From assembly GCA_023818895.1 (NCBI GenBank), contig JAMWCX010000001.1, positions 479,789 to 511,788 of the forward strand: a stretch of 32,000 nucleotides of DNA, given 5' to 3'. This DNA is from Candidatus Omnitrophota bacterium (lineage in GTDB: Bacteria > Omnitrophota > Gorgyraeia > 2-01-FULL-45-10). Both the position numbers and the translations under genes were made by a program. Within the stretch, counting starts at the first letter, position 1. Every line of letters starts with the position of its first letter. The notes beneath the pieces were generated by a model. The model saw only the letters and a list, made by a program, of their open reading frames with translations, searched no databases and was not told the DNA's origin. Shown in pieces: positions 5,039 to 32,000 of this stretch.

Positions 5039-5063
5039 CAAACTTTCCGCAATTGTGTTAATT

Positions 5064-5092
5064 ACTATATTATAACGATGATGGTTTGTCAA
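5064..5092 (-). promoter_or_regulatory. Sigma70-type promoter for the lpxL-like / lptCA-like / lptB unit
   Basis: The minus strand reads TTGACA (5092-5087), a 17-nt spacer, then TATAGT (5069-5064). It lies just downstream of the gap terminator, about 26 nt upstream of ATG 5038. Confidence 0.5.
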
Positions 5093-5111
5093 GAAGGCAT
5101 TGCCGTAAAAC

Positions 5112-5143
5112 AAGTGGGGCCGGGTTAAATTCCGGCCCCACTT
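5112..5143 (-). terminator. Rho-independent terminator after gap
   Basis: A perfect 12-bp GC-rich stem (AAGUGGGGCCGG / CCGGCCCCACUU) with an 8-nt loop. On the minus strand it is followed by GUUUUAC. It lies 30 nt downstream of the gap stop codon. Confidence 0.7.
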
Positions 5144-16383: not shown

Positions 16384-16443
16384 ATTCGCACTTGTTGGAA
16401 ATTCGCTACCAGCGATCGGTCACAAAACTTTTACCGATTTTTG

Positions 16444-17115
16444 TCAATTTTTGTCCAGCTCTTTTTTTATCTTCTTCATGTCCTCCCATACCAGCTTCTT
16501 GTCTTGCGGATTCCTCAATAAATACGCCGGATGGAAGGTGGGCATCACTTTGATACCTTCGTATTCATAAAACTTCCCTCTCAGTGCCGATATCGGCTTA
16601 TCGGCATTGAGGAGGGTCTGGCTGGCAAATTTACCGAGCGCGCATATAACCTTCGGTCGTATTATCTCAATCTGTCTTTTCACGTTTTCACGACAGGCGA
16701 GTATCTCGCTCGGAAGAGGTGAGCGGTTGTTAGGCGGTCTGCATTTTAAGATATTAGCTATGTAGACGTCGGATCTCTTCATCCCCATCGCCTCTATGAT
16801 CCTGGTGAGAAGCTGCCCCGCCCTTCCAACAAAAGGCAGACCCTGAATATCTTCATCCTCTCCCGGAGCCTCTCCTATGAACATGAGCGCGGCATGCGGA
16901 TTGCCTGAACCGAACACGACATTGCGCCTTGTTCGGGAAAGCTCACAGGCCTCGCATTTGAGCACCTCTTTTTTCAGAGTCTCAAGGTCTTCCTTTACGG
17001 GCTTTGTAGCAAGCAGGGACTCATCTTTCGAGAAGAACTCCGCCATCCCCGATTCCTTTTCAAGATCTATATAAAACTTTACGGCCGATATTATCTCCTC
17101 GAGATCCCCATCCAT
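16444..17115 (-). CDS. Uracil-DNA glycosylase, family 4 (Fe-S type)
   Basis: It has the motifs GEAPGEDEDIQGLPFVGRAGQLL and HPAYLLRNP, plus the Cys ligands CEACE...LKCRPP. I prefer ATG 17115 (GGGGGAAATTAGG upstream), one nt after the TAG of the upstream gene. The track TTG start is at 17139. Confidence 0.9.
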   Translation of the reverse strand: MDGDLEEIISAVKFYIDLEKESGMAEFFSKDESLLATKPVKEDLETLKKEVLKCEACELSRTRRNVVFGSGNPHAALMFIGEAPGEDEDIQGLPFVGRAGQLLTRIIEAMGMKRSDVYIANILKCRPPNNRSPLPSEILACRENVKRQIEIIRPKVICALGKFASQTLLNADKPISALRGKFYEYEGIKVMPTFHPAYLLRNPQDKKLVWEDMKKIKKELDKN

Positions 17116-17116
17116 C

Positions 17117-18256
17117 CTAATTTCCCCCACACATCTCAAGCGCTAGCTTCGCTATATCGTAACACGCTCGCGGCCTTGCTATTTTTTTGATATCCTCACG
17201 CATCTTCTTCAGCTTATCGGGATGTGTCGCCAAGTCTTCAAGAACTTTCCTCAACTGGTCCAGCTTGTCTATTTTAATAGCGGCGCCTGAGGATGTGAGA
17301 AAATCGCTATTGCGTGTCTCCTGGCCGATTATAGGAAAGACGATGATAAGCGGCAAGCCGCTTGCCAGACTTTCGGTGCTCGTTATACCGCCTGACTTGG
17401 ATATAAGGACATCCGATATGGCCATGTACTCGTTTACGTTATTTATGAAACCAAGAACGGTCAGGTGGTTCTTAAGGCCGGCCTTAAGGCCCTCGACCCT
17501 CTTTATCAAGTCTTTATTGTGTCCGCAAATCGCGATTATTTGAACCGGCTTAGATATACTGTCTATTACCTTCACTATGCTTTCGATCGGACCTAAGCCG
17601 AATCCGCCGCCTATGTTCATCACGGTAAATACACCTTCCCTTAGCCCGAGCTTTGCCAGAATTGTGCTTTTATCGACCGATTTTGAAAACACTGGCTCGA
17701 CTGGTATGCCGAGAACCTTTATGCGGTCCGGATCCTGCTTCCAACGCAGCAAGTCCTCTTTAGCGGCCTCTCCGGCGACCACATACATGTCTGTTCTCGG
17801 AGCGACCCACCATGAATGCAGTCTGTAATCAGTAACTACCGTTATAAGGCGGCTCTGGATCTCTCCCTTCTCCTTCATGCGCGATATGATCTCGCTCGCG
17901 AAAAAATGGGTCGAGACTATAACATCGGGCCTTGTTTCAACAAGGTATCTGCGAAACCTCCCCGAATTCGCCCAGTTGTTCAGCCTCCGCAGTTTGGCGA
18001 CGAGTAGATGCACATAGTAATTGTCAGTTAGAAAATAGCCCAGCCCCCAGAAAGTCGGCAGTCTGTTCACCATAGTAAGATATATTTTTAGATAAGACCA
18101 CTTGAAAAACCTATTGGTATAGTCAAGCGAGTCTATTATGGTGATATGAGCATCCTTCGGAGCAATCTCGTCGAGCGCGGCTTTTATGGCAAGAGAGGCC
18201 TTCTTATGGCCTATCCCCGCCGTAGCGTATACTACCAATATCTTCTTATTGACCAT
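17117..18256 (-). CDS. MGDG-synthase / UgtP-like glycolipid glycosyltransferase (GT28 family)
   Basis: 379 aa. The N-terminus is KILVVYATAGIGHKKASLAIKAAL, followed by a MGDG_synth-like region and a C-terminal GT28 half (KSGGITSTESLASGLPLII). Confidence 0.8.
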   Translation of the reverse strand: MVNKKILVVYATAGIGHKKASLAIKAALDEIAPKDAHITIIDSLDYTNRFFKWSYLKIYLTMVNRLPTFWGLGYFLTDNYYVHLLVAKLRRLNNWANSGRFRRYLVETRPDVIVSTHFFASEIISRMKEKGEIQSRLITVVTDYRLHSWWVAPRTDMYVVAGEAAKEDLLRWKQDPDRIKVLGIPVEPVFSKSVDKSTILAKLGLREGVFTVMNIGGGFGLGPIESIVKVIDSISKPVQIIAICGHNKDLIKRVEGLKAGLKNHLTVLGFINNVNEYMAISDVLISKSGGITSTESLASGLPLIIVFPIIGQETRNSDFLTSSGAAIKIDKLDQLRKVLEDLATHPDKLKKMREDIKKIARPRACYDIAKLALEMCGGN

Positions 18257-18320: not shown

Positions 18321-18926
18321 TTATTTTCCCTTGCCCTCTTTTTTCCGTCTCACAGCTCTTTCAGCCTTGCGCTTGTCGCGCCCAAGCAGCCATTTAACCG
18401 ATTCCAAAAGATCCCTAAACACATAATCCGGTTTCAAACCCTTTTTGCGCACCTCCTGGAGAGTCGCCTTACCGGACAGCACAAATATAGTACGCATGCC
18501 AAGCCGCTTACCCGCCTCTACATCAACGAAACTATCACCGATGAAATATGTCTGGCGCGGATCTATTGAATATTTCTCGATGGCCCTCTCAAGCATACCT
18601 GTCTTGGGTTTTCTGCAATCGCAGTTATCGTCGTCCTTGTGAACGCAATAAAATACCTCCTCTATTCTGGCGCCGGCGGCCCCTATCTTATCAAGCATCA
18701 TGCTGTTGATCTCGGCAAGCTTCTCTTTCGTAAAATACCCTTTTGCCACACCGCCTTGATTAGAAACTATTATTATCCTGTATCTGTTCTGGCAGAGAAG
18801 CTTTAGCGCTTCAAGTGAACCCGGCAGGAAATGGAAATCCTTGGTCTCTGTAACGTAATTGTATTTTGTCCATCCGCCAGGATCTTTGTTTATGACACCA
18901 TCTCTGTCCAGGAATATCGCTTTCAT
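18321..18926 (-). CDS. gmhB: D-glycero-D-manno-heptose 1,7-bisphosphate phosphatase GmhB (HAD-IIIA)
   Basis: It has the HAD motif I FLDRDGVIN, VSNQGGVAKGYF, the Zn-site/CRKP string YCVHKDDDNCDCRKPKTGM and GDSFVDVEAG. It carries an unusual Lys/Arg-rich 20-aa C-terminal tail (GRDKRKAERAVRRKKEGKGK). Its start forms an ATGA overlap with the upstream gene. Confidence 0.85.
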   Translation of the reverse strand: MKAIFLDRDGVINKDPGGWTKYNYVTETKDFHFLPGSLEALKLLCQNRYRIIIVSNQGGVAKGYFTKEKLAEINSMMLDKIGAAGARIEEVFYCVHKDDDNCDCRKPKTGMLERAIEKYSIDPRQTYFIGDSFVDVEAGKRLGMRTIFVLSGKATLQEVRKKGLKPDYVFRDLLESVKWLLGRDKRKAERAVRRKKEGKGK

Positions 18927-20341
18927 TGTCCGCCTTCTCCTTGGCGCCGTTTGGAATAAGAAGAAATCCTATCCTCTTTAAGCAGCATCGCCATAAGCAA
19001 CATAACGACTGGCAAAAAATGAATGAGAAACCTGCTCCATGTCTTTGACGCAAAAAATACGACGTCGACGTACGAGATCATGTAGAAAATAATGTAGCCG
19101 CCCACGGCAAGGACAACGGATGATGTGAGGTATTTCTGAGTCCGTGTAAATAGTTTTTTGTGATGAATCGCCAGCACTAGAAAGAACGCCGGCCACAATA
19201 TATTCCACTTCTTTGGTCCGAAGAGCTGCTTCTGCAACTCGTAGAATATCGGCATCAACTTGCCGGCCTGTTTTATGAGGTTGGCGGGGTTAATATTAGC
19301 TAGATTTATTTCGTCATTCGAAATGTGCCAAATACCTTTGGCCAGATTCCAGGGAAACAGCGCAATAAATATCACCGAGCCATAAAAAATAGGATAAAGC
19401 AGTCTTTTCAGAGAAAAATTCCGGCGATCCGATACAACGAATAAACATACCATTAAGGAATTAATCACACAATAAAGAAGCCCCTCATTTTTAGTCCAGC
19501 CCGCCATCGCGACCATAAACGCGGACATCACTAAAGACGCAACGTCAGAACTGTCCTCAAACCACCGGAGAAGAAAAAGCACGCTTGCGAAATAATAATA
19601 TGCCAGAGGAACTTCCAGATAAGCGTTGGTGGCATAAGCGTTAAACTGGGGCACGCTTGCCAAAAGAAAAGTGAACAAAAGAGCGTAGGTACGGTCTGAA
19701 AAGCGCCGCACAGTAAAATAGAACATTCCTAATATGCCGCAAAAAAATAAGGCGAATATGATTTTCACCAGCTGGTCGTTAAGATTTCCCATGCACATAT
19801 ACAGGAAAGTCTCGGCAAGCGGAATATTAAGAGGGTAGTCTGGATGCGGAAAGAGCCTGGCGAGGTAAGCAAAATACTCCTGGGGAATGGAATTGGCAAG
19901 ATAGAATATTTTGGATTTGATAGCGTATATCGCCACCGCATCGTACGCCTCTATGGGCCTCACTAGCGCCCTGAAGAAGGCATGAAATATTTCAAAAGAA
20001 ATCCCAGCTATAAGAAATATATCCAGCATGCCATAAGCCTTTACCGGGCCTGGTAGCGTTTCTATGACAGGCAGCTCCCTACCGCGGCTGATTCGTAAAA
20101 TATTTACCCCAAGCAAAATAAGCCACGCTAAAAGAAGCCCTGTAACATTAAAATCGAATTGTAGGAAATAAAAGAGCAGCATCTCTATGGTCAGCGCGGC
20201 GATACCGAGTCCGAAAGATATCGCGATAGCTTCCCAGAGAAAAAACTTTCTGGAATTTTCCGGAAATAAACAGAGTATATTAAAACCTATAAACGTCAGA
20301 GCCACTATAGAAATAATCAGATTAAATATCTGCATTGTCAT
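18923..20341 (-). CDS. Polytopic membrane protein, putative GT-C-fold (ArnT/PMT/GtrC-like) glycosyltransferase
   Basis: 472 aa, with roughly a dozen hydrophobic segments. It has a loop with an acidic residue after the early TMs (RPIEAYDAVAIYAIKSK) and a KNEG-containing loop. The context is a DPM1-like GT2 gene. The assignment rests on architecture and context, not on strong motifs. Confidence 0.5.
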   Translation of the reverse strand: MTMQIFNLIISIVALTFIGFNILCLFPENSRKFFLWEAIAISFGLGIAALTIEMLLFYFLQFDFNVTGLLLAWLILLGVNILRISRGRELPVIETLPGPVKAYGMLDIFLIAGISFEIFHAFFRALVRPIEAYDAVAIYAIKSKIFYLANSIPQEYFAYLARLFPHPDYPLNIPLAETFLYMCMGNLNDQLVKIIFALFFCGILGMFYFTVRRFSDRTYALLFTFLLASVPQFNAYATNAYLEVPLAYYYFASVLFLLRWFEDSSDVASLVMSAFMVAMAGWTKNEGLLYCVINSLMVCLFVVSDRRNFSLKRLLYPIFYGSVIFIALFPWNLAKGIWHISNDEINLANINPANLIKQAGKLMPIFYELQKQLFGPKKWNILWPAFFLVLAIHHKKLFTRTQKYLTSSVVLAVGGYIIFYMISYVDVVFFASKTWSRFLIHFLPVVMLLMAMLLKEDRISSYSKRRQGEGGQ

Positions 20342-20745
20342 TTAACAATCCTGAGCACATATCGCGAGTCATCCAGGCCGGCAAGGAAGGTGTAGCCGGC
20401 CTTTTTCACGCCAGGTTTATTATAAACGATAATTATATCAGGCCTAACATTGCTTTCAAGGCGCGGATAAAGATAATACGCGGCTCTTCTTTTATCAAGC
20501 GAGCCTTCCTCTATGCCGATTATAGAATATGTAACATCAGCCGGTGTCCTCTCATTGCAAAGTGTAAGCAACTCGTAAAGACTGTCGCCAGTCACATAGG
20601 AGCGCTTTTCTTCGAGAGACCTCGTCATAAGCATCTGATAATCATGAAGATTGCCCTTTATGAAAAGCTCCCGACCAGTAAAGCTCAACCACAGTATTAT
20701 CCATACCAGTAAAAGTATCTTAAGAACCCTGTGTCTTATCATCAT
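20338..20745 (-). CDS. Hypothetical single-pass membrane-anchored protein (135 aa)
   Basis: It has an N-terminal TM segment (VLKILLLVWIILWLSF) followed by a ~105-aa mixed alpha/beta-looking domain containing AAYYLYPR. Its stop overlaps the GT-C-like start (ATGA), which suggests coupled translation. Confidence 0.6.
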   Translation of the reverse strand: MMIRHRVLKILLLVWIILWLSFTGRELFIKGNLHDYQMLMTRSLEEKRSYVTGDSLYELLTLCNERTPADVTYSIIGIEEGSLDKRRAAYYLYPRLESNVRPDIIIVYNKPGVKKAGYTFLAGLDDSRYVLRIVK

Positions 20746-20806: not shown

Positions 20807-22189
20807 TCAGTTAGCTACAACCCACCTAAAGAACCTTCTGGCAAGAAAGAAAAAATGCCTCGGCGATTTTATTGACATAAGTTGATAAAAAATTATATGC
20901 GGCCTGAGATAAAAAGCGGCGAAAGCAAGTCGGTGTATGTTTTTAAGCCGTTTTCTCGTAAGAGCCTTTGGCACATATGCGGCGTTGGTAAAATAAAACC
21001 TTTCCCAATCGACGTCATCCAACTCGCCGCCTGCGCGTAGGGCTTCGTAACTTTCAGTCCCCGGAAACGGAAGATACGTAAAATAATTTGCTCTTTTAAG
21101 AGGCAATTTTAAGGAAAAATCGATCGTCTGGCGCATTGTTTCCTCGGTCTCGCCGGGGAAACCCAGTATAAAAAAACCTGCCATATCGATGCCCGCCTTA
21201 GCGATCCTGTTAACATACTCGCTGATGCGCGCCGTTGTAATACCCTTCTTCATCGATGAAAGAACCTTGTCAGAGCCAGATTCTATACCAAGCGAAATCA
21301 TATAAAGACCTGTGTCCTTCATTAACTTTAACATCTCGTCATCAAGTGTGTCCATCCTTACCCCATTGGGCACAGCCCAACTCATACCGAGGCTAAGGGA
21401 TTTGAGTTTACGCAGGAACTCCTTAACATAAGCGGCGTCCATAGTGAAGTTATCATCCACTATATGAAACTCCTTTATGCCGAAATCATTCTTAAGCATC
21501 TGCAGCTCTGAAAGGACGTTTTCTACGGACCTACGGCGTATCTTCTTGCCGGAAACAAGGCTGCCGGCGCAGAAGGTGCAAGGATATGGACATCCTCTCG
21601 TCACCATAATAGGCGCTATCGGAAACTGTCTGAAGAAAGCTCCATGCTGCGCCTCAGGATAAGTTTGGGGCTGAATAAGATCCCATGCCGGAGAACCCAG
21701 TCTGTCAAGGTCTGCCGTAACTATGCTGGCGTTAACTCTTACCGCCGCGCCTTCACGATACGCCAGGCCAGGGATAGATGAGAAATCCCCGCTTCCTTTT
21801 TCCAAAGCATCAAGAAATAGCGGAAATCCTTCTTCAGCCTCGCCCGCAAACAAAAAATCTAAATTTTCTTCCTTCTTAAGCGTCTCTTCCGGCAGGGCCG
21901 TGGGATGGGGCCCCCCAGCCACTGTAACCACATCTTTCCTGAAGGACTTGGCAGCATCAAGGGCCCTTCGTAAAAACGGCAGGTCAAAAGTATAACACTG
22001 AAATCCCACAACATCAGGATCGAATCTCTTGAGCGCGCCTGGAAGTTTGTCAATGCTCACCCCTTCCTTAATGCAATCAAGAATACTGACCTTATGATGA
22101 CTTCTGATAGCGGCGGCCAAATAGCCAAGCCCTAAAGAAGGTTGTATATGGTCGCTTCTGTTGTAAGGTTTTACAAGCAGCACTTTCAT
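20807..22189 (-). CDS. B12-binding-domain radical SAM protein (class B type)
   Basis: 460 aa. The N-terminal cobalamin-binding-like Rossmann segment reads KVLLVKPY...LGLGYLAAAI...DVVGFQCYT...VVTVAGGPHPTALPEE. It is followed by the CX3CX2C cluster motif VTRGCPYPCTFCAGS and a radical-SAM barrel (GIESGSDKVL). Confidence 0.9.
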   Translation of the reverse strand: MKVLLVKPYNRSDHIQPSLGLGYLAAAIRSHHKVSILDCIKEGVSIDKLPGALKRFDPDVVGFQCYTFDLPFLRRALDAAKSFRKDVVTVAGGPHPTALPEETLKKEENLDFLFAGEAEEGFPLFLDALEKGSGDFSSIPGLAYREGAAVRVNASIVTADLDRLGSPAWDLIQPQTYPEAQHGAFFRQFPIAPIMVTRGCPYPCTFCAGSLVSGKKIRRRSVENVLSELQMLKNDFGIKEFHIVDDNFTMDAAYVKEFLRKLKSLSLGMSWAVPNGVRMDTLDDEMLKLMKDTGLYMISLGIESGSDKVLSSMKKGITTARISEYVNRIAKAGIDMAGFFILGFPGETEETMRQTIDFSLKLPLKRANYFTYLPFPGTESYEALRAGGELDDVDWERFYFTNAAYVPKALTRKRLKNIHRLAFAAFYLRPHIIFYQLMSIKSPRHFFFLARRFFRWVVAN

Positions 22190-22193
22190 TTAG

Positions 22194-22892
22194 TTAGTCT
22201 ATAAATCTGTATAGAAGGATCGCTCCGATAGCGCTGAAACCATGCTTCCAGGATATCTTTTTTCCTTCGGCGTAGGTTCTGCCGTAATACGCTATCGGCA
22301 TCTCATATACCCTTAAGGCTTTATTCTTCAATATCTTGGCGGTAAGCTCAGGTTCTACCGAAAATCCGTTAGAGCGAATTCTGATATTCGCGATTGCGCT
22401 TTTCCTGAACATCTTGTAACAGGTCTCAATATCAGATAGGGTGGAATTAAAAAGAAGATTCATGAGGAATGTTATCACGCCGTTACCAACCTTATGCCAA
22501 AACATGTACACACGCTGCGGCTTGCCGCCCGAAAGCCTTGAACCGTACACCACGTCGGCGAATCCTTCCTCTATGGGTCTGGCCATCTCCACGAATTCAT
22601 TCGGGTCATACTCAAGGTCCGCGTCCTGCACAACGATGATATCGCCCGTCGCCCTGGCGAATCCGGTTCGCAATGCCGCCCCTTTGCCCATGTTCCTTTC
22701 GTGAAAAATAACCTCCACGCGGCTGTCGAGATGAGTATTCTTAAGAAGCTCGGCCGTGCCGTCTTTGGAGCCGTCATCGACTACGATAAGCTCCTTTACT
22801 ATCGGAAGAGAAAGCACTTTTTCTATTATCTTAAGCACGGTGGCTTGCTCGTTATACACCGGCATCACCACAGATAAAATCTTTTCTCTCAT
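22194..22892 (-). CDS. GT2 glycosyltransferase of the DPM1 / ArnC / GtrB (polyprenyl-phosphate sugar synthase) type
   Basis: It reads LSVVMPVYNEQATV...LIVVDDGSKDGT...NMGKGAALRTGFARATGDIIVVQDADLEYDP. I prefer ATG 22892 (AAGGA 9 nt upstream) over the track TTG at 22898. Only 4 nt separate it from the radical SAM gene. Confidence 0.85.
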   Translation of the reverse strand: MREKILSVVMPVYNEQATVLKIIEKVLSLPIVKELIVVDDGSKDGTAELLKNTHLDSRVEVIFHERNMGKGAALRTGFARATGDIIVVQDADLEYDPNEFVEMARPIEEGFADVVYGSRLSGGKPQRVYMFWHKVGNGVITFLMNLLFNSTLSDIETCYKMFRKSAIANIRIRSNGFSVEPELTAKILKNKALRVYEMPIAYYGRTYAEGKKISWKHGFSAIGAILLYRFID

Positions 22893-22904
22893 TTTCAAAG
22901 TCCT

Positions 22905-23981
22905 TTATTTTGGCTTCCTGGAAAGTCGTCTAAGCATATTAAGAACGCTATCCTTTTCAGGGTTTATCGCAACTTTAGCGCCATGCAGAAATGACAATGC
23001 TTTAAGAAAATTTCCAATTAAAGGATTGTCTGTGAGCACCACTTCGATGGCCTTTTTTCTCCTGCGCTTCAATAACTGCAGGAATGAGCCAAGAGCAAAA
23101 GGGGCACAAGCGACCTCTTGCTTTCTTACGTCAAAGTGATCAATCGTGATCGGCCATTCAACACCCTTTTTGGTTAATATGAGCATCTGATGGCCATCCC
23201 TCGCTACGGCAGCCGCTATCTTGTCTACCTTCGCTCCGAATGATAAGTCCTCTGCGAGGTATGCGGCCCGAACGCGCCTTCCCCATTTTCTAAAATATAT
23301 ACTCTCATTGGCCTTGAATAGAGACTCGCGCCTATCCAGCTCTTTGAAGCTAATGCCTTCTTTATGGTACACATAGGAAGCTTTTGCGCGCACGATGGTG
23401 AAACCTGCTTCTTGAGCTCTCTTAGAAAAATCCGTCTCCTCAAAGTATCCTATGTTATAGTCTTCGTCAAACAAACCAACCTTCTCCAGGACAGCCCGTT
23501 TCATGAGCATGCAGAAACCGCGAGCCACATTAAGCTCTTGAACCTGACCTTTAAGACTTTTAAGGCTTAGGGCAAAACTTTCGATAACTAGCCCTTTCGG
23601 TGGAAACTGCCCCGATGTGTTACTTGATGGATTCACTATACCTATATCTTCTTTTGAGTCAAGGACGGAAAGCATCTCCTCCAACCATCCTGATGTGGCA
23701 ATCGTATCATTATTCATCAAACATATATAAGGGCTGTCCGATGCTGCCAAGCCCTGATTGGCCGCCTTTACAAAACCGAGGTTGGCGGAATTACGCAATA
23801 CTTTTATATCAAGATGAGGCACACTAGCAAGAGCATCGAGAAATGAGGATGTCTTAAGATCGCTTCCGTTATCAATAATTACAAATCTGAAAGGCGTATT
23901 GGTGTTTTTGAGTATCGAGTCGATACACTCTTTCGTGGCTTCAAGCTGATTCCAGACAGGTATAATTATGTCGCACTTCAT
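22905..23981 (-). CDS. Two-domain glycosyltransferase, paralog A: GT2 (GT-A) domain plus shared ~120-aa C-terminal module
   Basis: 358 aa. It reads MKCDIIIPVWNQ, FVIIDNGSD, NLGFVKAANQGL, LMNNDTIATSGWLEEM, DIGIVNPSSN, GFCMLMKR, FEETDFS and YVYH. The C-terminal module runs from WGRRVRAAYLAED to the end. Its start forms an ATGA overlap with the upstream gene. Confidence 0.85.
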   Translation of the reverse strand: MKCDIIIPVWNQLEATKECIDSILKNTNTPFRFVIIDNGSDLKTSSFLDALASVPHLDIKVLRNSANLGFVKAANQGLAASDSPYICLMNNDTIATSGWLEEMLSVLDSKEDIGIVNPSSNTSGQFPPKGLVIESFALSLKSLKGQVQELNVARGFCMLMKRAVLEKVGLFDEDYNIGYFEETDFSKRAQEAGFTIVRAKASYVYHKEGISFKELDRRESLFKANESIYFRKWGRRVRAAYLAEDLSFGAKVDKIAAAVARDGHQMLILTKKGVEWPITIDHFDVRKQEVACAPFALGSFLQLLKRRRKKAIEVVLTDNPLIGNFLKALSFLHGAKVAINPEKDSVLNMLRRLSRKPK

Positions 23982-24751
23982 TTTTCAACCTTATCTTTTA
24001 CCAGCTCCCAATACTTTGCCCATTTGAGGAAATTTATAAACGCGAAGAGGATAGCAAACACGAGGCCGTAGAGGCCGTCTTTATACCCTTGTTTTTTCAC
24101 ATAAGATTTCCAAAAGATCTTTAACGATTTACCTATGAGGCCTTTCTTGATCGCCTTTGTGGCTAGCACTCCTTCTTTCTCGAGAAGCTTTTGGGCCGCT
24201 ATGGTCGAGTATCGGTTCTGCCTCGAAACAAACTGTTCAATCGTATCAAAAGGATGATGGTCTATATCCGCGTCGATCTTCCCCACGTTGCCTTTATAGA
24301 TGGGAGTTTCATGGACCGCCCCTTCGTATCTTGCGTATCTGCGGTTCACAAGGTTCGGTATATAATGATGAAATCCTCCGAAATCCATGGAATGGCCAAG
24401 AAAGAAATTACGCCTCCTGAATTTGTAGACAACGACACCGTCATTCCTTGCTATGACCTCCGCAAGCTTCATCCTAAAATCATCCGTTACCACATCGTCG
24501 GCGTCTATATGAAGCACCCAGTCGTATTTCGCGTTATCGTTGGCTGCGTTCCGATCATCGGCAAAAGATCCCGTGAACCTATGCTGGATGACGCGAGCGC
24601 CCATCGATTTCGCGATTTCGACAGTCCTATCGGTCGAAAAACCGTCAACTACCACAATGTCATCGGCCCATTTCACACTCTCAAGGCAGCGCGAAATATT
24701 CTTCTCCTCGTTTTTTGCGATCACCGCAACTGTAACATTTATCTTTTGCAT
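23978..24751 (-). CDS. GT2 glycosyltransferase, WaaE/KdtX-like (LPS-core type), paralog 1
   Basis: I prefer ATG 24751 (MQKINVTVAVIAKNEEKNISRCLESVKWADDIVVVDGFSTDRTVEIAK), giving 257 aa. The track start 24847 would overlap the upstream paralog by 109 nt. It also carries the DADD motif (HIDADDVV). Confidence 0.85.
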   Translation of the reverse strand: MQKINVTVAVIAKNEEKNISRCLESVKWADDIVVVDGFSTDRTVEIAKSMGARVIQHRFTGSFADDRNAANDNAKYDWVLHIDADDVVTDDFRMKLAEVIARNDGVVVYKFRRRNFFLGHSMDFGGFHHYIPNLVNRRYARYEGAVHETPIYKGNVGKIDADIDHHPFDTIEQFVSRQNRYSTIAAQKLLEKEGVLATKAIKKGLIGKSLKIFWKSYVKKQGYKDGLYGLVFAILFAFINFLKWAKYWELVKDKVEK

Positions 24752-25536
24752 AAACCTTTCGTCTTTAATTTCGAATTTTCGGATTCGCGACTCAGCATCT
24801 CTTTGTATTTTATGTAACTCATGAACTGGTAAAGGGCTCCAGCCCAAGAGACCGTAAATCCAAGAAGGCCATCCTTGTAGCCGCCTTTCTGAATATATGC
24901 CTTAATAAATCTTGAGAGGGCCTTTCGGTACATCTTGATAAAATTAATCTTGCGCCTCTCCTTAAACCACTTCTCCGCCTCAAGGGTCGTCTGGTTGTTA
25001 AGGCTCGTAAAAAAATCGTGGAAGTTCCTGTATGAGTAATGGATAATGTCCTTCTTCAGGTGGCCGCAAGAACCGTCTATAAATACCCTCGGATGCACCA
25101 CTGCCTCTTCGTACCTGAAAAACCTTTTGTCGAAAAGTCTCACCTTAGGAGCCGGATACCATCCGCCCCAGCGAATCCATTTATCTCCTATATATGTCTT
25201 TATGGGTATAGTATAGGCCTTGTCCTTGGGGCCCGCTTTGATTAAAGATGAGATCTCGTCGGCAAGCTCACGACTAATTCGCTCATCAGCATCGAGACTA
25301 AGAACCCAATCGTTTTTCGCGAGGCTATAAGCGTAATTACGGTGCCTGCCCTCTATATCCATCTTCCTGGTGAACACCTTGTCGGTATACTTTTTAGCGA
25401 TATTAACGGTGTTATCCGAACTGGAATCGTCCAGCACCACTGTCTCGTCCGCCCAAGAGGCGCTTTTGAGGCAATCCGCGATATTGTCTTCCTCATTTTT
25501 TGTGATCACTACCACGCTTACTGGAACCTTATCCAT
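24739..25536 (-). CDS. GT2 glycosyltransferase, WaaE/KdtX-like (LPS-core type), paralog 2
   Basis: 265 aa. It reads MDKVPVSVVVITKNEEDNIADCLKSASWADETVVLDDSSSDNTVNIAK and SLDADERI. The C-terminal amphipathic region (YKDGLLGFTV) parallels YKDGLYGLVF of paralog 1. Confidence 0.85.
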   Translation of the reverse strand: MDKVPVSVVVITKNEEDNIADCLKSASWADETVVLDDSSSDNTVNIAKKYTDKVFTRKMDIEGRHRNYAYSLAKNDWVLSLDADERISRELADEISSLIKAGPKDKAYTIPIKTYIGDKWIRWGGWYPAPKVRLFDKRFFRYEEAVVHPRVFIDGSCGHLKKDIIHYSYRNFHDFFTSLNNQTTLEAEKWFKERRKINFIKMYRKALSRFIKAYIQKGGYKDGLLGFTVSWAGALYQFMSYIKYKEMLSRESENSKLKTKGLCKR

Positions 25537-25559
25537 GATAACCTATCCCTTTCGAGTGA

Positions 25560-26573
25560 CTAATAATAAGTGACTTTCGCCTTATGGACGAACGCGAGCG
25601 CCTGGAGGGCCTTGCCGAAAAACTCATCTCCCACGCATATCTCGCTATAACGTTTTTTCTTTTTTAGTATACTGAAGGCGGTCTTTATATGAAAATTGTC
25701 AGGCGCCATATTGACCGCTATTATATTCGAATGGGCTGGGATATCAACCTTTTCTTTTACAAAGAACCATACCCAGTTGCCAGCCCTGGCAAGTCTGGTG
25801 GCTTCTGAAAATAGCTTCTTAAGCACGTTCTGATCATACGTATCAAGCACATACGCGATGCGCCTAGGCTTGCCCCACCTGAATTCGTAAATTTCCTTAT
25901 TTCTTCGAAAATCCTCATCGAAGGTCTTGAGGCGCCTGAAGGAGGCATTCTCGCGATGATAAACATACGCGCCGCAAGCCCTGACGCAACGGTAGCCTTC
26001 TTTGACCGCCCGTCGCGAAAAATCGGTGTCCTCGAAGTTACCCATCCCGTATATCTCGTCAAAAAAACCTATCTTACTAATAAGGTCCCTCTTTAATAGC
26101 ATGCAGAATCCTATGGCGCTGCCAAGCTCGATGTATTTTCCGCGCAATGGTTTCAATCTCTCAGCATAACGCTCAAGAGGCTCGCCCGGGGCCGGCCTCT
26201 GACCAAGGTTATTGCTTGAAGGATTGACAATTCCAATATCGTCAGAGCGTTCAGCGATCGATATCATTTCCTCAAGCCAGCCCTCGGTAACAATAGTGTC
26301 ATTATTCAGCAGGCAAACAAATGGGGCGTCCGAAAGGGCCATACCGTGGTTCACCGCCTTGATAAAGCCAAGATTTTCACTGTTCCTCACAAGAAGGAGC
26401 GGGATCTCGCCGGCTGTTTTAAGGCCTTCGAGGTATTTTCTCGTATCGTCGGTGCTGGCATTATCTATTATTATCAGCCGGTACCCTGTTTTTGTATTAT
26501 TACGTATGGACTCAACGCAATCTTTTGTGAAAGATAAGTTGTTCCATACAGGAATTATGATATCACATTTCAT
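25560..26573 (-). CDS. Two-domain glycosyltransferase, paralog B (GT2 plus shared C-terminal module)
   Basis: 337 aa. It reads MKCDIIIPVWNN, LIIIDNAST, NLGFIKAVNHGM, LLNNDTIVTEGWLEEM, DIGIVNPSSN, GFCMLLKR, FEDTDFS and YVYH. The C-terminal module runs from WGKPRRIAYVLD to the end. Its start forms an ATGA overlap with paralog C. Confidence 0.85.
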   Translation of the reverse strand: MKCDIIIPVWNNLSFTKDCVESIRNNTKTGYRLIIIDNASTDDTRKYLEGLKTAGEIPLLLVRNSENLGFIKAVNHGMALSDAPFVCLLNNDTIVTEGWLEEMISIAERSDDIGIVNPSSNNLGQRPAPGEPLERYAERLKPLRGKYIELGSAIGFCMLLKRDLISKIGFFDEIYGMGNFEDTDFSRRAVKEGYRCVRACGAYVYHRENASFRRLKTFDEDFRRNKEIYEFRWGKPRRIAYVLDTYDQNVLKKLFSEATRLARAGNWVWFFVKEKVDIPAHSNIIAVNMAPDNFHIKTAFSILKKKKRYSEICVGDEFFGKALQALAFVHKAKVTYY

Positions 26574-27622
26574 GCCTTAACCCCAGCGGCCGCATCAATT
26601 GTCTTGATAACACTATGGGTATCTTTCTCAGCGTCAAAATAATGGATGGATTTAAACATCTTCGAAAGCACGCGTGCCATATCGCGATCATCGACAAAAA
26701 TTCCAGTGTATCGCTTATCTTCATTTTTCATCTTGTTGAAAAACAATATGGTTGAGAATATTACAGCCGAAAATATCGGCGGAAAAAATCTTTCCCTTAC
26801 GTTTATATGTTCGATAAAAAGACTTTTGGCAGTGTTCCAAAGATAAACCACATGCTGCTTTCTCGCAAGGTCTAAAACAAGTTTAGCGATTTTTGAATCA
26901 GCCTTATCGCTCGTCACGATGAACACGAGTTTAAGTCGCCGTCCCCATCTTGAATAAAAAAGCTCCTTATTCTTTTCGTGCAAAGCGATGCGCTTGTCGT
27001 CCTTAAATAGGCTTGCGAATGTCGAATCCCGAAGATGGCGAACCGTGACATCGCGCACCTTCACACAACGGAAGCCTGCGCGTATCGCCCGCACCGAAAA
27101 ATCATCGTCATCATAATATCCAAAACCATATGCCTCGTCGAACCCGCCGATCTTTTCTACCACGGATCTCTTTATCAAAACACAGTATCCTCTGCAAAAA
27201 TCGACTTCGATGTAAGGTTTAGTAAGCGGCGGGTGGCGCAGTTTGTCCGCAAAATCAGGATTTACAAGGCCGATGTCTTCTTCGGAATCCGCAACCTCGA
27301 TCATCCTTTTGAGCCAGTCGTCTGTCTCTATGATGGTATCATTATTCATTACGCAAATATACGGTGCGCGAGACAGCTCGATACCTTGGTTCACGGCCTT
27401 CACCCAGCCGAGATTTTCATCGTTTCTTACGAGCAATGAGTCAGGATGGGTGATCTTATATTCTTCGAGAAATTTCATAGTTAAAGGACCACTTGCATTG
27501 TCAATAAGAATCAGGCGGTAAGGTGTATGAGTTTTGGCCTCTATACTCTTAAGGCAATTTGAAGTAAGGTCTTCTTTGTTGTAAACCGGTATTATTATGT
27601 CACAAGCTTTCAATCCGTTCAC
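26570..27622 (-). CDS. Two-domain glycosyltransferase, paralog C (GT2 plus shared C-terminal module)
   Basis: 350 aa with a GTG start in a GTGA overlap with paralog D. It reads ACDIIIPVYNK, LILIDNASG, NLGWVKAVNQGI, VMNNDTII and GYCVLIKR. The acidic box is YDDDDFS. The C-terminal module runs from WGRRLKLVFIV. Confidence 0.85.
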   Translation of the reverse strand: MNGLKACDIIIPVYNKEDLTSNCLKSIEAKTHTPYRLILIDNASGPLTMKFLEEYKITHPDSLLVRNDENLGWVKAVNQGIELSRAPYICVMNNDTIIETDDWLKRMIEVADSEEDIGLVNPDFADKLRHPPLTKPYIEVDFCRGYCVLIKRSVVEKIGGFDEAYGFGYYDDDDFSVRAIRAGFRCVKVRDVTVRHLRDSTFASLFKDDKRIALHEKNKELFYSRWGRRLKLVFIVTSDKADSKIAKLVLDLARKQHVVYLWNTAKSLFIEHINVRERFFPPIFSAVIFSTILFFNKMKNEDKRYTGIFVDDRDMARVLSKMFKSIHYFDAEKDTHSVIKTIDAAAGVKA

Positions 27623-28743
27623 GCAGTGCGCGTCCTCTCAATGATAGCCTGGAGCTTTTTTTTCATGTCTTCACCTATATCCACTCTGCAAACAAATGCC
27701 CTATGAATGGGGTAAAACGCCGTCAGCAAGATCGGATTGTCTTTGCCAACAACTATCATAGCGTCATATCTTTTGCGCGCCTTAGTTCCAAACGAGCGTT
27801 CTATAAGGCGCGCCAGAGCTTGCGCCTGCCTGAAGATGTCGGGTAGGAAATTGTATTTGATATTCTGATGTAACGGAATTCTAGCTTCCGACGAGATGGC
27901 GGCAAGGCGCTTCTTATTTGCCTCCCTGTCGCCGAACACCCATAGATTTACCCAGCACCATTCTCGGGCCAGAAAAAGCACACCATCTAAAACATTTTTT
28001 ATATCGGCGTCGCTAATGCTATCATCGATCGCAAAAACCCATCCTATTCGCAAATGTCGGGGCCATTTTTGAAAATATGTCTTCTCACCTGGCGATACAA
28101 GCCTTTTTCTGTCGCCCATAACGTTAAAGGTGGCATGCTGTTTATGATAAACATAGGCATCATGCACCGAAACGCATCGGTAACCTGCTTTATGAGCTCT
28201 CATGGAATAGTCCGTATCATCAAAACCGCCTATTCCAAAGGCTTCATCCAGATATCCTATCTTATCTATCACTTCGCGTTTGATTAGCATGCAGAAACCG
28301 AAGCATTGATTCATCTCCATATAGCGGCCCTTGTTGGCTTCGAGCCTCTTGGCGTACTCCTCTATCGGCGTGTCAAGATGGCCGTCGCAGACCGGGTTAA
28401 GAAGGCCGGCGTCTTTATGCGCTTCGGCAAATTCTACCAGCCTTTCAAGCCAGCCCGGAGCCGGGATGGTATCGTTATTCAGAACGCAGACATACGGGGC
28501 GCTTGATGCTTGAAGGCCCTGATTGACAGCCTTGACAAAACCGAGGTTCTGCTCATTGCGTATCAGGACTTTCTCGACACCGTCTATTTTCAGGCCCCTC
28601 AGATATTCGGCAGTCGCAGCAGCACTACCGTTATCGACCAGAATAAGGCGATACGGATACCGAGTGTTCTTTATCAGATTTTCAATGCACGCGCGCGTGT
28701 GCTCCGGCTGGTTCCATATCGGTATGATGATGTCACATTTCAT
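27619..28743 (-). CDS. Two-domain glycosyltransferase, paralog D (GT2 plus shared C-terminal module)
   Basis: 374 aa. It reads MKCDIIIPIWNQ, LILVDNGSA, NLGFVKAVNQGL, VLNNDTIPAPGWLERL, GFCMLIKR, FDDTDYS and YVYH. The C-terminal module runs from WPRHLRIGWVFAIDD. An AAGAGG RBS is present. Confidence 0.85.
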   Translation of the reverse strand: MKCDIIIPIWNQPEHTRACIENLIKNTRYPYRLILVDNGSAAATAEYLRGLKIDGVEKVLIRNEQNLGFVKAVNQGLQASSAPYVCVLNNDTIPAPGWLERLVEFAEAHKDAGLLNPVCDGHLDTPIEEYAKRLEANKGRYMEMNQCFGFCMLIKREVIDKIGYLDEAFGIGGFDDTDYSMRAHKAGYRCVSVHDAYVYHKQHATFNVMGDRKRLVSPGEKTYFQKWPRHLRIGWVFAIDDSISDADIKNVLDGVLFLAREWCWVNLWVFGDREANKKRLAAISSEARIPLHQNIKYNFLPDIFRQAQALARLIERSFGTKARKRYDAMIVVGKDNPILLTAFYPIHRAFVCRVDIGEDMKKKLQAIIERTRTA

Positions 28744-28787: not shown

Positions 28788-29876
28788 CTATCTTTTCTCC
28801 AAGAGCTTATCGACAGCCCTCATGACATCTTCAGGTTTTATACTATCAAGGCATTTCTGTGTAACGCACTTTACGTACTTGAAATTTCTGTAACATGGCC
28901 TGCACGGCACCTTGCTTGTAATGGTCATATGCTTCTCGCTCGGAGGATACGGTCCATATACCTTTTCATCAACAGGCCCGAATATCGATATTGTCTTCAC
29001 GCCGAGACCCACGGACATGTGCAAGGGTCCGCCGTCGTTTGTGATGATGAGCGCGCAACGAGACGCAAGCGCAAGAAACATACCTATGGGAACCTTCCCA
29101 CAAGCCATGATGGCGTTATGTTTCATAAGGGCTTGGACGGCCTCGCAAAGCTCTATCTCCCTTACGTCACCGAACAATATGATTTTTGCTTTATATCTTT
29201 CGGCCAATAGATTGGCAACTTCGGCGAAGCTTGCTTTATCCCATCTTCTGTATTTGGCATCGAGGCCCCAACTTGCGCCGCAGCCGGGAAGCATGCCGAC
29301 GAGAAGCTCGTCCGTCCCAACGCCATTCTCGGCAAGAAATCTGTCGCCGGCCCTCTTATCAAGATCTGAAACATACACCTTGGGGCCGCTTATTATGTTG
29401 CCGCTATCTATATTTAGAGGTTTCAATAGATCCAGATAGTACTCTATGACGTGTTTTCCCGAAAAACTTTCTATATCGATCTTGTCGGTCAGAAAACGGC
29501 CCCTGTCCCTGAAATTGAAACCCGCTCGTTTTTTGACACCCAGTAACTTAAGAAGCAGGCTATATTGATATCCCAAAGAAAGATCGATGGCTATATCGAA
29601 TCGCTCCTTTTTTATTTCCCTCAGAAATCCTATAACGCGCTTCATACATTCGACCCTCGATCTCTTCCACAAGTCCCTGTAATCATCCTTCTCATATACG
29701 AATATCTTGTCTATATCGGGGTTGGAACGTATAACCTCGTAAGCGCGCTTATTACATACGTAGCCTATAAACCCTCCAGGGTATTTCTTTTTAATACATT
29801 CCACTAAAGGAGTCGAGAACAGGACATCTCCTATGCCGAACGGATTTATAATGAGTATACGCGGGTTATCTTTCAT
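28788..29876 (-). CDS. Glycosyltransferase family 9 (ADP-heptose:LPS heptosyltransferase-like)
   Basis: 362 aa. It starts RILIINPFGIGDVLFSTPLVECIKKKYP, carries the central GASWGLDAKYRRW and ends with ALIITNDGGPLHMSVGLGVKTISIFGP. These are typical RfaF/RfaC-family strings. Confidence 0.85.
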   Translation of the reverse strand: MKDNPRILIINPFGIGDVLFSTPLVECIKKKYPGGFIGYVCNKRAYEVIRSNPDIDKIFVYEKDDYRDLWKRSRVECMKRVIGFLREIKKERFDIAIDLSLGYQYSLLLKLLGVKKRAGFNFRDRGRFLTDKIDIESFSGKHVIEYYLDLLKPLNIDSGNIISGPKVYVSDLDKRAGDRFLAENGVGTDELLVGMLPGCGASWGLDAKYRRWDKASFAEVANLLAERYKAKIILFGDVREIELCEAVQALMKHNAIMACGKVPIGMFLALASRCALIITNDGGPLHMSVGLGVKTISIFGPVDEKVYGPYPPSEKHMTITSKVPCRPCYRNFKYVKCVTQKCLDSIKPEDVMRAVDKLLEKR

Positions 29877-31117
29877 GCGGGCCTTCCCGCGCGCACCCCG
29901 GCTGTCGCCGCGCTTACGCCTATCGAACTCCAGAAAAGGGTCGCAAGATTGAGTGAATATAGGTTGGTATCGAAGAAACCGAGCACAAGGAATGCCAGCA
30001 CACCCATCGATAGACCTAAAAGCACCGATTCGTAAAATTTGTCTTTTATCTTTTTAAGGCTCTTGCCCACCCCCACAAAATAGGCGGCCATCAAATATAT
30101 AAAACCCACAAGTCCCACAAGACCTGTGTCAGCGGCCATCTGAAGGTAGCAGTTATGAGCATACGCGCCTTTCTTGCCTTTCCACTCATCGTTACGAAGC
30201 CTCATGAACTCCTGGAAGAAGCTGTTAAGGCCGTTTCCTATTACAGGATGGACCTTGAATATTTCCCATCCCGTACCCCACATGAAAAATCTATCACTCA
30301 CGCTGGATATCCCGAATATATAATTGGCCATCTCCATTCTAAGAAAAAACGGCATGACGAGCATCACGACTAATACCGCTATTAACCAGAACCGCTTCTT
30401 AGCGAGCGCTATATATATACACGAGACAGCAAACCCCACCCAAGCGCCGCGCGCCTTGGTAAGGAACAAAAGATAGAAAAGGGCGAGCGATACAGACGCC
30501 ACCACCCACCTTATCCTCAGTCCTTTAAGATCAAATATAGTAACGCAGGCTATGGGCATAATCACAAGTAATATCCATGCCGCTAGATCGTTAGGAAATG
30601 GAAAGCAGGCGGTAGGAAATCCCCGGAAAAAGCCGGCTCCGTCATTAGGCGCCCTGTATTTGTATACCGGATATTGATGCAAAAAATCGGGTATCGGTCC
30701 ATAGAGCTGAATGAACCCGTCGGCCAGAATAACTATTGTCGAAAGAAATGCGATAACAAAAAGATCCTTAAGCTTGGCCTCCGTGTCGATGCTCTCGACT
30801 ATAACATAGTAAAAAGCTATATACTTCAGGACCTTCGAGAAAAGGGCTTTTAGGCTAAGGCCGAAATATGCCGTAACGAAGAAAGACGGAATAATCGTTG
30901 CAACAAAGATAAGAAACGGTAGTTCTAACCCTGTTTTTGGAAGACTGATATCCTTATTTATTATTCTCCTCGCGAGAAAGAGGACTATGCCAACGGAAAT
31001 AGCTATTTCAGATATGGATTTCGAAAAAGGCGCGGCAAAAACAACGGCAAAGACGCACCACTTCATCGCGTAGGAAAATATTGTATTAAATTTATCTTCA
31101 ACCGGCTTCCTTAACAC
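29873..31117 (-). CDS. O-antigen ligase / Wzy_C-domain membrane protein (WaaL-like, or PglL-type O-oligosaccharyltransferase-like)
   Basis: It is polytopic, with the loop TKARGAWVG and the Wzy_C-type AHNCYLQMAADTGLVGLVGF. The start is uncertain. I chose GTG 31117 (GGAAGGA 6 nt upstream). Alternatives are ATG 31066 (no SD) or the track TTG 31156, which overlaps the upstream gene by 59 nt. Confidence 0.8.
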   Translation of the reverse strand: MLRKPVEDKFNTIFSYAMKWCVFAVVFAAPFSKSISEIAISVGIVLFLARRIINKDISLPKTGLELPFLIFVATIIPSFFVTAYFGLSLKALFSKVLKYIAFYYVIVESIDTEAKLKDLFVIAFLSTIVILADGFIQLYGPIPDFLHQYPVYKYRAPNDGAGFFRGFPTACFPFPNDLAAWILLVIMPIACVTIFDLKGLRIRWVVASVSLALFYLLFLTKARGAWVGFAVSCIYIALAKKRFWLIAVLVVMLVMPFFLRMEMANYIFGISSVSDRFFMWGTGWEIFKVHPVIGNGLNSFFQEFMRLRNDEWKGKKGAYAHNCYLQMAADTGLVGLVGFIYLMAAYFVGVGKSLKKIKDKFYESVLLGLSMGVLAFLVLGFFDTNLYSLNLATLFWSSIGVSAATAGVRAGRPA

Positions 31118-32000
31118 TTTTAATCCTTCCGAACCTTCCTGTGTCGACCATGGCAAGCCTTACGCCGAGAGCGAAAAGCGACATTATGACTATCCCTATA
31201 ACCACAAAAGCCGACTTTAACGAAAGTCTCTGAATCAATAAGGCGCTAACACCCAGGCAGATGCATATGCCGTATACGACCAGCACCGCTCGCTTCTTTT
31301 TAAAACCCAAAAGCGCAAGCCTGTGCGACGAATGGTCCCTGCCGCCCTGAAATATAGAACGCCCCTCTTTTATACGCATAATAGTTACGAGTGTGGTGTC
31401 AAATATCGGATAGGCAAGTATTATGACAGGCATGGCAAGGGACGTCGTCAAAAAGCGAGTGCTCCAGCTGCCGAGAATAGCGGTGGAAGCAAGAAGAAAT
31501 CCAAGGACAAGACTTCCTGAATCACCCATAAAGATCTTCGCCTCCGGGAAATTATGCTTAAGAAATCCTAAAGATGATCCGGCAATCGCAAAGGAGACAA
31601 CAGCTATGCTTATTTGGCTGCCGCTCCACATCACTATCCCGAAAAAGACAGCCGCGATCGTCGCTATGCCTGCGGAGAGGCCGTTCATATTATCGAGAAG
31701 GTTAAACGAGTTAGTTATGCCGACTATCCATAAATATGTCAATATCGTGCTAAGATAATAATTTTGCAAAAAGCCTATCCGAACGCCAGATTTTATTACA
31801 ACCATCGCTGCAAGAAATTGGGCAAGAAGCTTAACCTCCGGCATCATTCCCATCCTGTCATCGACCAGCCCAACCACAAGAAGAATGGAAGCGCCTATAA
31901 TTATGCTCAAAAGCCGCGGATCCTGGCCCAAATTTACGGTCGTGAAGAGGCCGGCCGTAAACGCTATGTAAATGCCAACACCCCCAAGAAGTGGAGTCGG
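31098..32000 (-). CDS. Polyprenyl-phosphate N-acetylhexosamine-1-phosphate transferase (WecA/MraY family, GT4 PNPT); the 5' end lies beyond the window
   Basis: The reading frame stays open upstream of the track start. My translation of 32000-31932 is PTPLLGGVGIYIAFTAGLFTTVN. It has the DD motif VGLVDDRMG and the family box NSFNLLDNMNGLS, and is polytopic. The true start lies outside the window. Confidence 0.85.
   Translation of the reverse strand, partial: PTPLLGGVGIYIAFTAGLFTTVNLGQDPRLLSIIIGASILLVVGLVDDRMGMMPEVKLLAQFLAAMVVIKSGVRIGFLQNYYLSTILTYLWIVGITNSFNLLDNMNGLSAGIATIAAVFFGIVMWSGSQISIAVVSFAIAGSSLGFLKHNFPEAKIFMGDSGSLVLGFLLASTAILGSWSTRFLTTSLAMPVIILAYPIFDTTLVTIMRIKEGRSIFQGGRDHSSHRLALLGFKKKRAVLVVYGICICLGVSALLIQRLSLKSAFVVIGIVIMSLFALGVRLAMVDTGRFGRIKSVKEAG

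Follow-up and report, generated by a model that had tools for sequence, protein, structure and literature searches.

Four paralogous GT2 glycosyltransferases of Candidatus Omnitrophota share a lineage-specific C-terminal domain that is probably a truncated GT4-type N-terminal domain

GT-A and GT-B are the two main folds of nucleotide-sugar glycosyltransferases and are usually treated as separate solutions. In monotopic GT-B enzymes, the N-terminal domain of the glycosyltransferase family 4 (GT4) type, hereafter the GT4 N-domain, is the membrane-interacting half (PMC12022483). In PimA, residues 77-RKVKK-81 of helix α2 are needed for phospholipid binding, and mutation of this cluster abolishes binding (PMC9202250). 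For Alg13, both the membrane anchor and the acceptor site come from Alg14, a free-standing N-terminal half (PMC8993221). We analyzed a stretch of 32,000 nucleotides from a Candidatus Omnitrophota bacterium (contig JAMWCX010000001.1, positions 479,789 to 511,788; hereafter the window), which encodes four paralogous glycosyltransferases of family 2 (GT2), each followed by a shared C-terminal domain, hereafter the tail. Nearly all knowledge of the phylum Omnitrophota comes from metagenome-assembled genomes (MAGs), and no description of its surface chemistry was found in the literature searched. Our best overall explanation, to which we assign a probability of about one half, is that the four proteins are soluble GT2 paralogs of an envelope-glycan locus and that their tail is a derivative of the GT4 N-domain, tethering them at the membrane or the lipid acceptor.

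The four genes lie on the minus strand of the window and are designated paralogs A (22905-23981, 358 aa), B (25560-26573, 337 aa), C (26570-27622, 350 aa) and D (27619-28743, 374 aa), in agreement with the coordinates and lengths listed in an earlier note on this DNA. As that note had stated, the proteins align over their full length; the identity to A is 45% for B, 37% for C and 37% for D. Nearly all of the shared strings quoted in it were found, including MKCDIIIP, DN(G/A)S, NLG(F/W)(V/I)KA, NNDT, the acidic box and the W(G/P)(R/K) junction, with the correction that some of them are altered in paralog C, the most divergent copy (ACDIIIPVYN, DWLK, YDDDDFS and TVRH). The GT2 domain comprises residues 1-236 in A (23274-23981) and B (25866-26573), 1-229 in C (26936-27622) and 1-230 in D (28054-28743). 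The tail comprises residues 237-358 in A (22908-23273, with LARDGH), 237-337 in B (25563-25865), 230-350 in C (26573-26935) and 231-374 in D (27622-28053), the last with two insertions relative to B. D, C and B are chained by four-nucleotide overlaps, as reported before: the GTG start of C overlaps the stop codon of D (GTGA), and the ATG start of B overlaps the stop codon of C (ATGA). An additional overlap of this kind (ATGA) joins the ATG start of A to the stop codon of the upstream short GT2 gene s2.

The N-terminal ~235 residues had been read as a GT2 domain, and both Pfam and a predicted GT-A fold bear this out. The four paralogs matched PF00535 (Glycos_transf_2) over residues ~5-170 with scores of 86.3, 94.1, 83.0 and 93.2 bits (cut-off 23.3), and a PF13641 match carried the GT2 assignment on to ~residue 215. 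The NCBIfam scan gave only sub-threshold matches to assorted GT2 equivalogs, all inside the first ~245 residues (best, MftF, 61 bits vs 280); since all of these are far under the cut-offs, no named equivalog fits A-D. D37, N90-N91-D92-T93, D172-E173, D184, H206 and W233 are identical in the alignment of the four paralogs, and D37, N90, N91, D92, D172, E173, D184 and H206 are also invariant in a 60-sequence alignment. By analogy, the conserved acidic motifs (IDN, NNDT and (E/D)(E/D)xD) would provide nucleotide-sugar/metal binding and the catalytic base.

The AlphaFold2 (AF2) model of full-length B, made with the 60-sequence alignment, consisted of two domains (predicted local distance difference test, pLDDT, 92.2; predicted template modelling score, pTM, 0.89). 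Its top Foldseek matches were all GT-A enzymes (K4CP, PmHS2, ppGalNAc-Ts and WrtF) with E-values of 3e-13 to 7e-11 and template modelling (TM) scores of at most 0.57, and no solved structure in this search shared the two-domain architecture. Each paralog thus carries a bona fide GT2 catalytic domain with a predicted GT-A fold. A transmembrane segment was not found in A-D, where the maximum 19-residue hydropathy (KD19) is only 1.43, and transmembrane anchoring was ruled out on this basis.

The tails are 100-145 residues long and share just 13-27% pairwise identity among A-D. For a non-circular test of their homology, we built a profile from B-type tails alone, all taken from other genomes, and compared it with the 53 open reading frames (ORFs) of at least 100 aa in the window. 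This profile found the tails of A (E 6.8e-10), C (1.1e-6) and D (3.1e-4), all in register, and the best unrelated ORF appeared at E 0.6. Because an outside profile retrieves the three other tails in register, the C-terminal module that the earlier note had proposed as common to all four proteins is real. Modelled alone with AF2, the tail gave a pLDDT of 93.4 and the same elements as in the full-length model. In B, strands are predicted at residues 238-243, 267-272, 284-288, 311-314 and 333-336 and helices at 248-263, 294-304 and 317-330, which corresponds to a predicted five-stranded, Rossmann-like fold with β-α-β-β-α-β-α-β topology. To the elements described before, this model adds two predicted strands that had not been listed, β3 in the conserved P-x-H-S-N-I region and the terminal β5.

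Scanning the full-length proteins and the isolated tails against Pfam and NCBIfam yielded no family for the tail, and the tail consensus sequence matched no glycosyltransferase family in Pfam. PDB sequence searches with protein A and two tail profiles returned nothing relevant in the tail; the matches to a mitochondrial ribosomal protein and to a de novo TIM barrel were spurious. The C-terminal residues thus correspond to no annotated domain in Pfam, NCBIfam or the PDB sequences. The view that the architecture is not a described family also held, as neither the tail domain nor its combination with GT2 is described in Pfam, NCBIfam, the PDB or the literature searched (half/truncated GT-B, Omnitrophota glycosyltransferases). 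We then searched 1.84 billion representative proteins with the tail profile using HMMER (E <= 1e-3), and the tail was found in only 107 clusters. In every non-fragment match it is located at ~residues 235-350, right behind a GT2 domain. Among the 107 clusters there was no standalone tail save for contig-end fragments, and no GT-B enzyme was matched. The tail HMM likewise gave nothing significant outside GT2+tail proteins when compared with all ORFs of the related loci.

We regard a truncated and divergent GT4-type N-domain as the probable identity of the tail. When the tail model alone was searched with Foldseek, the lead match was MshA (E 2.7e-3, TM 0.71-0.74, probability 1.00), and further matches included plant UGTs, a GT4 mannosyltransferase, BshA, WaaG, PimA and GlgM, with TM-scores of 0.56-0.74 over the GT-B enzymes. 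In addition, 75 diverse tails were scanned singly against Pfam. PF13439 (GT4 N-terminal domain) was matched by 10 of the 75 tails (best E 0.0016) and PF13579 by four, and the remaining 33 families were each matched by only one or two. The GT4 N-domain matches fell in one register, placing tail residues ~20-106 on profile positions ~5-97 of 158 or 170, that is, on the first ~60% of the domain. The tail of A matched Glyco_trans_4_4 weakly (E 0.21), and the second tail of a natural fusion protein (P0166) matched it with E 5e-4. A relaxed hhalign alignment of the tail with a narrow set of GT4 N-domains ran end to end in the expected register and was not significant.

The donor-binding C-terminal half of GT-B had been reported as absent, and indeed no GT-B C-terminal family was matched in Pfam by the 75 tails or by full-length A-D. 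After β1, the tail reads D-x-Y-D in the sequence alignment, not G-G. It ends after β5, with five strands in ~100 residues against the ~7 strands of a complete GT4 N-domain. Since the Gly-rich loop, the final two strands and all of the donor-binding C-half are missing from the tail, it cannot be a transferase by itself.

Several results weigh against descent from GT-B. Every tail-only Foldseek match lay above E 1e-3, and generic Rossmann-like folds (methylglyoxal synthase, MGS, and universal stress proteins, USP) followed close behind the GT-B matches. All GT4 N-domain matches in Pfam were below the gathering score, the best being 19.0 bits for PF13439 (cut-off 28.5) and 20.9 bits for PF13579 (cut-off 29.7). 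Comparison of the tail family and a GC-rich subgroup with a GT4 N-domain alignment by hhalign was not significant (P 0.01-0.05, probability 1-4%); this alignment was narrow, comprising one Omnitrophota GT4 and its 120 homologs, and an iterative search of 1279 locus ORFs for more diverse GT4 N-domains gave only 13 near-orthologs. Since the Foldseek table gives no target ranges, it is the Pfam register that points to the N-half of GT-B and not to its C-half. Thus, for the orphan GT-B N-half suggested in the earlier note, the best structural matches are GT-B/GT4 enzymes and the GT4 N-domain register recurs, whereas no Foldseek match lies under E 1e-3 and all sequence matches are sub-threshold. 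Descent of the tail from GT-B is likely, not proven.

The same Foldseek list can be read differently, with the tail as a generic Rossmann-like ligand-binding or regulatory domain (MGS-like or USP-like), unrelated to GT-B, that senses a nucleotide or metabolite to tune the GT2 domain. Methylglyoxal synthase, universal stress proteins and phosphopantothenoylcysteine synthetase appear in the list at E 0.02-0.07, the conserved His/Arg could line a ligand site, and sequence methods gave no significant link between the tail and GT-B. However, these families were absent, even weakly, from the Pfam scan of the 75 tails, in which the GT4 N-domain families recur, and the Foldseek probability and TM-score peak at GT-B enzymes. 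Pfam nucleotide-binding families were unmatched, and inspection of the tail alignment by eye, not by a systematic search, revealed no glycine-rich loop. We consider a regulatory domain of this kind unlikely.

It is even more improbable, to a degree that we would hardly defend it, that the tail descends from a bifunctional GT2-GT2 enzyme and preserves, in degenerate form, the front half of its second GT-A domain. The Foldseek alignments of full-length B with K4CP and PmHS2 span 350-390 columns, past the first GT-A domain, and GT2+tail+GT2 fusions exist. However, in these fusions a complete extra GT2 comes after the tail, so the tail does not take the place of one. A second GT-A domain in the tail was rejected on the grounds that there was no GT-A enzyme in the top 50 of the tail-only Foldseek search and that the GT2 families of Pfam matched no tail. 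An Alg14-like split enzyme was also rejected, as Alg14 was unmatched in Pfam at E up to 1-10 and no Alg13-like C-half partner is located nearby.

The strongest conservation in the tail falls on a polybasic patch where helix α2 ends, directly before strand β4. The tails in the window have a net charge of +6 to +8, against 0 to -5 for the GT2 parts, and a net positive charge (median +10) is common to all 75 of the diverse tails. At the C-terminal end of α2, at least three K/R occur within six residues in 75 of the 75 tails, and at least four in 71. The best-kept residues are K307 (73/75), H281 (69/75) and R238 (67/75). The patch reads KRRRKK in A (residues 305-310, 23052-23069), KKKKR in B (residues 304-308, 25650-25664), TKARKR in D (residues 320-325, 27769-27786) and KMKNEDKR in C (26711-26734). 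We checked the sequence of PimA (...HRKVKKWIAEGDFDVLHIH...), in which the α2 stretch is ...HRKVKKWIAEG-DFDVLHIH. The tail patch would occupy the topological position of the membrane-binding RKVKK helix, with a nearly invariant His and Arg alongside. Two observations speak against a membrane-binding role: the hydrophobic moment of α2 (0.36-0.44) is not above that of other tail helices, and the patch of paralog C is weak, the weakest among A-D.

In the mechanism that we propose, A-D would be paralogous soluble GT2 enzymes with a GT-A fold, belonging to an Omnitrophota locus of the lipopolysaccharide (LPS)-core/O-antigen type. As the invariant acidic residues of the family are kept, each paralog is most likely sugar-transferring and would move one sugar from a nucleotide sugar to a lipid-linked glycan that is being extended on the cytoplasmic side of the inner membrane. 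We infer that the four enzymes would act in sequence. The tail, a lineage-specific domain of ~100 residues, would most likely be a truncated GT4-type N-domain without a donor site. It may tether the GT-A domain, which has no transmembrane segment, and orient it on the membrane, and it may also help to present a phosphate-bearing lipid acceptor; its role would then resemble the job of the N-domain in GT-B enzymes and that of Alg14 for Alg13. The tether is proposed because acceptors in such a locus are lipid-linked, in addition to the basic patch and the precedents of PimA, GT4 enzymes and Alg14.

The distribution of the proteins bears on what the tail does. More than 120 full-length homologs of B were found (59-72% identity) together with one partial protein that is 100% identical, and all of the named ones are recorded as "glycosyltransferase family 2 protein" of Candidatus Omnitrophota/Omnitrophica MAGs. 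A locus scan with one genome per species gave 47 loci, of which L001-L037 and L040 are Omnitrophota-type; the others (L038, L039 and L041-L047), from other phyla, match the GT2 part only. The related loci contain one to four GT2+tail genes. Four copies are present in the window and in L002, L005, L008, L011, L028 and L032, and B is alone in L021-24, L027, L029, L033, L034 and L036; B is the member present in every related locus. The survey of the fusion that the earlier note had called for thus amounts to 107 clusters and one to four copies per locus, seen only in Omnitrophota-type MAGs. A divergent, GC-richer subgroup in GCA_023247275.1 has the same macro-synteny (WecA, Wzy_C, GT9 ... PMT_2 ... 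MGDG-synthase-like, uracil-DNA glycosylase, PriA). Nine loci (L001, L011, L017, L019, L021, L029, L033, L035 and L037) come from records titled 'uncultured Planctomycetia/Planctomycetales bacterium', with B orthologs up to 72% identical and the same synteny; this is probably a matter of labelling of Omnitrophota-type MAGs.

The tail becomes an internal domain in several natural fusions. GT2+tail+GT2+tail, equivalent to D+C, occurs in P0166, P0175 and a 784-aa ORF of L020 (7421-9775), and GT2+tail is joined to an s2-like short GT2 in P0149, P0356, P0357 and P0385. Other fusions join GT2+tail to a methyltransferase (P0137, P0139 and P0145), to a Glyco_trans_1_2 region (P0143, Omnitrophota) or to a polysaccharide deacetylase (P0181).

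In the main rival of the tether, the tail would mediate oligomerisation, possibly with the short GT2s. It would be a scaffold that unites the paralogs, or a GT2+tail protein with a short GT2, into a glycan-channelling complex, either an assembly line or a two-site synthase like K4CP and PmHS2. The four-nucleotide overlaps between neighbouring genes (D/C, C/B and s2/A) point to coupled synthesis, the genes keep a conserved order, the D+C and B-like+s2-like fusions place the tail between two GT-A domains, and the two-GT-A polymerases K4CP and PmHS2 top the Foldseek list for the full-length model. However, the B-only genomes indicate that four-way hetero-oligomerisation cannot be the ancestral role, and a uniformly polybasic surface is poor as a like-with-like interface. 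The methyltransferase and deacetylase fusions show that the tail tolerates unrelated neighbours, and the alignments with K4CP and PmHS2 have a root-mean-square deviation (rmsd) of 14-21 Å, which shows that the pair of domains cannot be superposed as a whole. On balance, we regard the scaffold as possible and doubtful.

The hetero-oligomeric assembly line of four subunits, put forward in the earlier note, was not supported as stated, as related loci carry one to four copies and many have B alone. Since B stands alone in the same locus in many genomes, the tail is not solely for joining the four paralogs. The D+C and B-like+s2 fusions and the translational coupling do show that neighbouring enzymes work in one pathway, and these enzymes may contact each other. 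A combined picture, in which the tail is a portable membrane/lipid-acceptor module of GT-B grafted on GT-A (a natural chimera) and also a docking hub that joins D-C and B-s2 into a membrane assembly line, with the fusions as frozen snapshots, is tentative and we would not favour it.

The genes around the paralogs form a conserved locus. The order WecA, Wzy_C ligase-family protein, GT9, D, C, B, s1 and s2, A, DPM-synthase-like GT2, radical SAM enzyme and PMT_2 is kept in more than 20 loci, and from this context we infer an envelope-glycan locus of the LPS-core/O-antigen type. Upstream of D, all on the minus strand, are a GT9 gene of the heptosyltransferase family (28788-29876, directly upstream and syntenic), a syntenic gene for a Wzy_C membrane protein of the O-antigen ligase family (29873-31156) and a gene for a WecA/MraY-type polyprenyl-phosphate sugar-phosphate transferase (31098-31931, PF00953). 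The true start of the WecA-type gene is probably further upstream, the listed ORF being shorter than its ~346-aa orthologs. Two short GT2 genes lie on the minus strand between B and A, namely s1 (24739-25536, 265 aa, without a tail) and its paralog s2 (23978-24847, 289 aa from the listed TTG start). From this TTG, s2 overlaps s1 by 109 nt, and from the ATG at 24751 (MQKINVTVAV) it encodes 257 aa with an overlap of 13 nt. This ATG is the likelier start because the orthologs are mostly 254-282 aa long and the overlap is only 13 nt.

Downstream of A, a minus-strand GT2 gene of 234 aa (22194-22898; syntenic, 62-84% identity) can be read as a polyprenyl-phosphate sugar synthase of the DPM-synthase-like type. 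It is followed on the same strand by a gene for a B12-binding radical SAM enzyme (20807-22189), which lies inside the glycan cluster and is syntenic in several loci (59-73% identical in L001, L002, L003, L008, L020 and L028). Its presence hints at an unusual sugar or lipid modification, e.g. methylation. The syntenic PMT_2 gene (18923-20341, minus strand) encodes an ArnT-like GT-C membrane glycosyltransferase. Between these two genes is an ORF of 135 aa (20338-20745, minus strand) with an N-terminal hydrophobic segment and no Pfam match; it shares its last 4 nt with the start of the PMT_2 gene. A complete MGDG-synthase-like GT-B (17117-18256) is the sole Glyco_tran_28_C match in the window. 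A HAD phosphatase gene is part of the cluster too.

An LpxL-like acyltransferase and Lpt genes are located elsewhere in the window. The ORF at 3345-4235 (minus strand) has an LptC match and an LptA/LptD_N match, which suggests that LptC- and LptA-like parts are fused or arranged in tandem in its product. As ~100 nt are shared between this ORF and the LpxL-like ORF upstream (4136-5113), one of the two starts is probably miscalled. The run of MGDG-synthase-like GT-B, uracil-DNA glycosylase and PriA genes (14383-18256) is also present in the divergent relative GCA_023247275.1 (L048, 16870-21113). As this run is shared, the glycan locus appears to lie in a stable chromosomal neighbourhood, not on a mobile island.

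The catalytic part of the four proteins is an ordinary GT2 domain, and glycosyltransferases with a Rossmann-like accessory domain are nothing new in principle. What distinguishes the GT2+tail proteins is their restriction to one lineage, in which they appear to be natural GT-A/GT-B domain chimeras and markers of a conserved Omnitrophota envelope-glycan locus. If a GT-A enzyme has indeed borrowed half of a GT-B enzyme, the acceptor- and membrane-side half of GT-B can act as an independent module, and the polybasic α2 patch with the conserved His/Arg would provide a defined entry point to the question of how lipid-linked acceptors are located by soluble GT-A enzymes. The analysis defines an unannotated domain family that marks this locus. 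In practical terms the benefit is modest and consists of a new domain model and improved annotation for ~100 protein clusters.

Compared with known systems, the proteins are closest in their N-terminal part to GT2 enzymes of the Glyco_tranf_2_3/WbbL-rhamnosyltransferase-like type (PF00535 and PF13641), with which they share above-threshold matches over ~235 residues, the predicted GT-A fold, the IDN, NNDT and (E/D)(E/D)xD motifs, solubility and an envelope-glycan locus. The C-terminal ~100-145 residues of A-D, in contrast, are covered by no scanned model or solved structure. The two-domain GT-A polymerases K4CP and PmHS2 rank first in the Foldseek search with the full-length model, and the natural fusions also set the tail between two GT-A domains. 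However, the second domain of K4CP and PmHS2 is a complete catalytic GT-A domain, whereas the tail alone is unlike GT-A, and the superposition gives the large rmsd mentioned above. Alg14/Alg13 and the bacterial split GT-B pair EpsE/EpsF provide a precedent for an N-half that, without a covalent C-half, gives a membrane anchor and an acceptor site. The difference is that Alg14 needs Alg13 for the active site, whereas here catalysis would come from an unrelated GT-A domain and no orphan C-half is located nearby. Relative to the GT4 N-domain of PimA, MshA, WaaG and BshA (PF13439/PF13579), which has ~170-200 residues and seven strands, the tail has ~100 residues and five strands, is without the Gly-rich loop after β1 and the C-terminal donor domain, sits behind a GT-A domain and gives sub-threshold sequence matches. 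The two are alike in the Rossmann-like β-α-β arrangement, in LA(R/N)xG(H/N)xV at the α1/β2 junction and in the basic α2 directly before a hydrophobic β4, and the best, if marginal, structural matches of the tail are to such enzymes, in which the N-domain binds the membrane and the acceptor.

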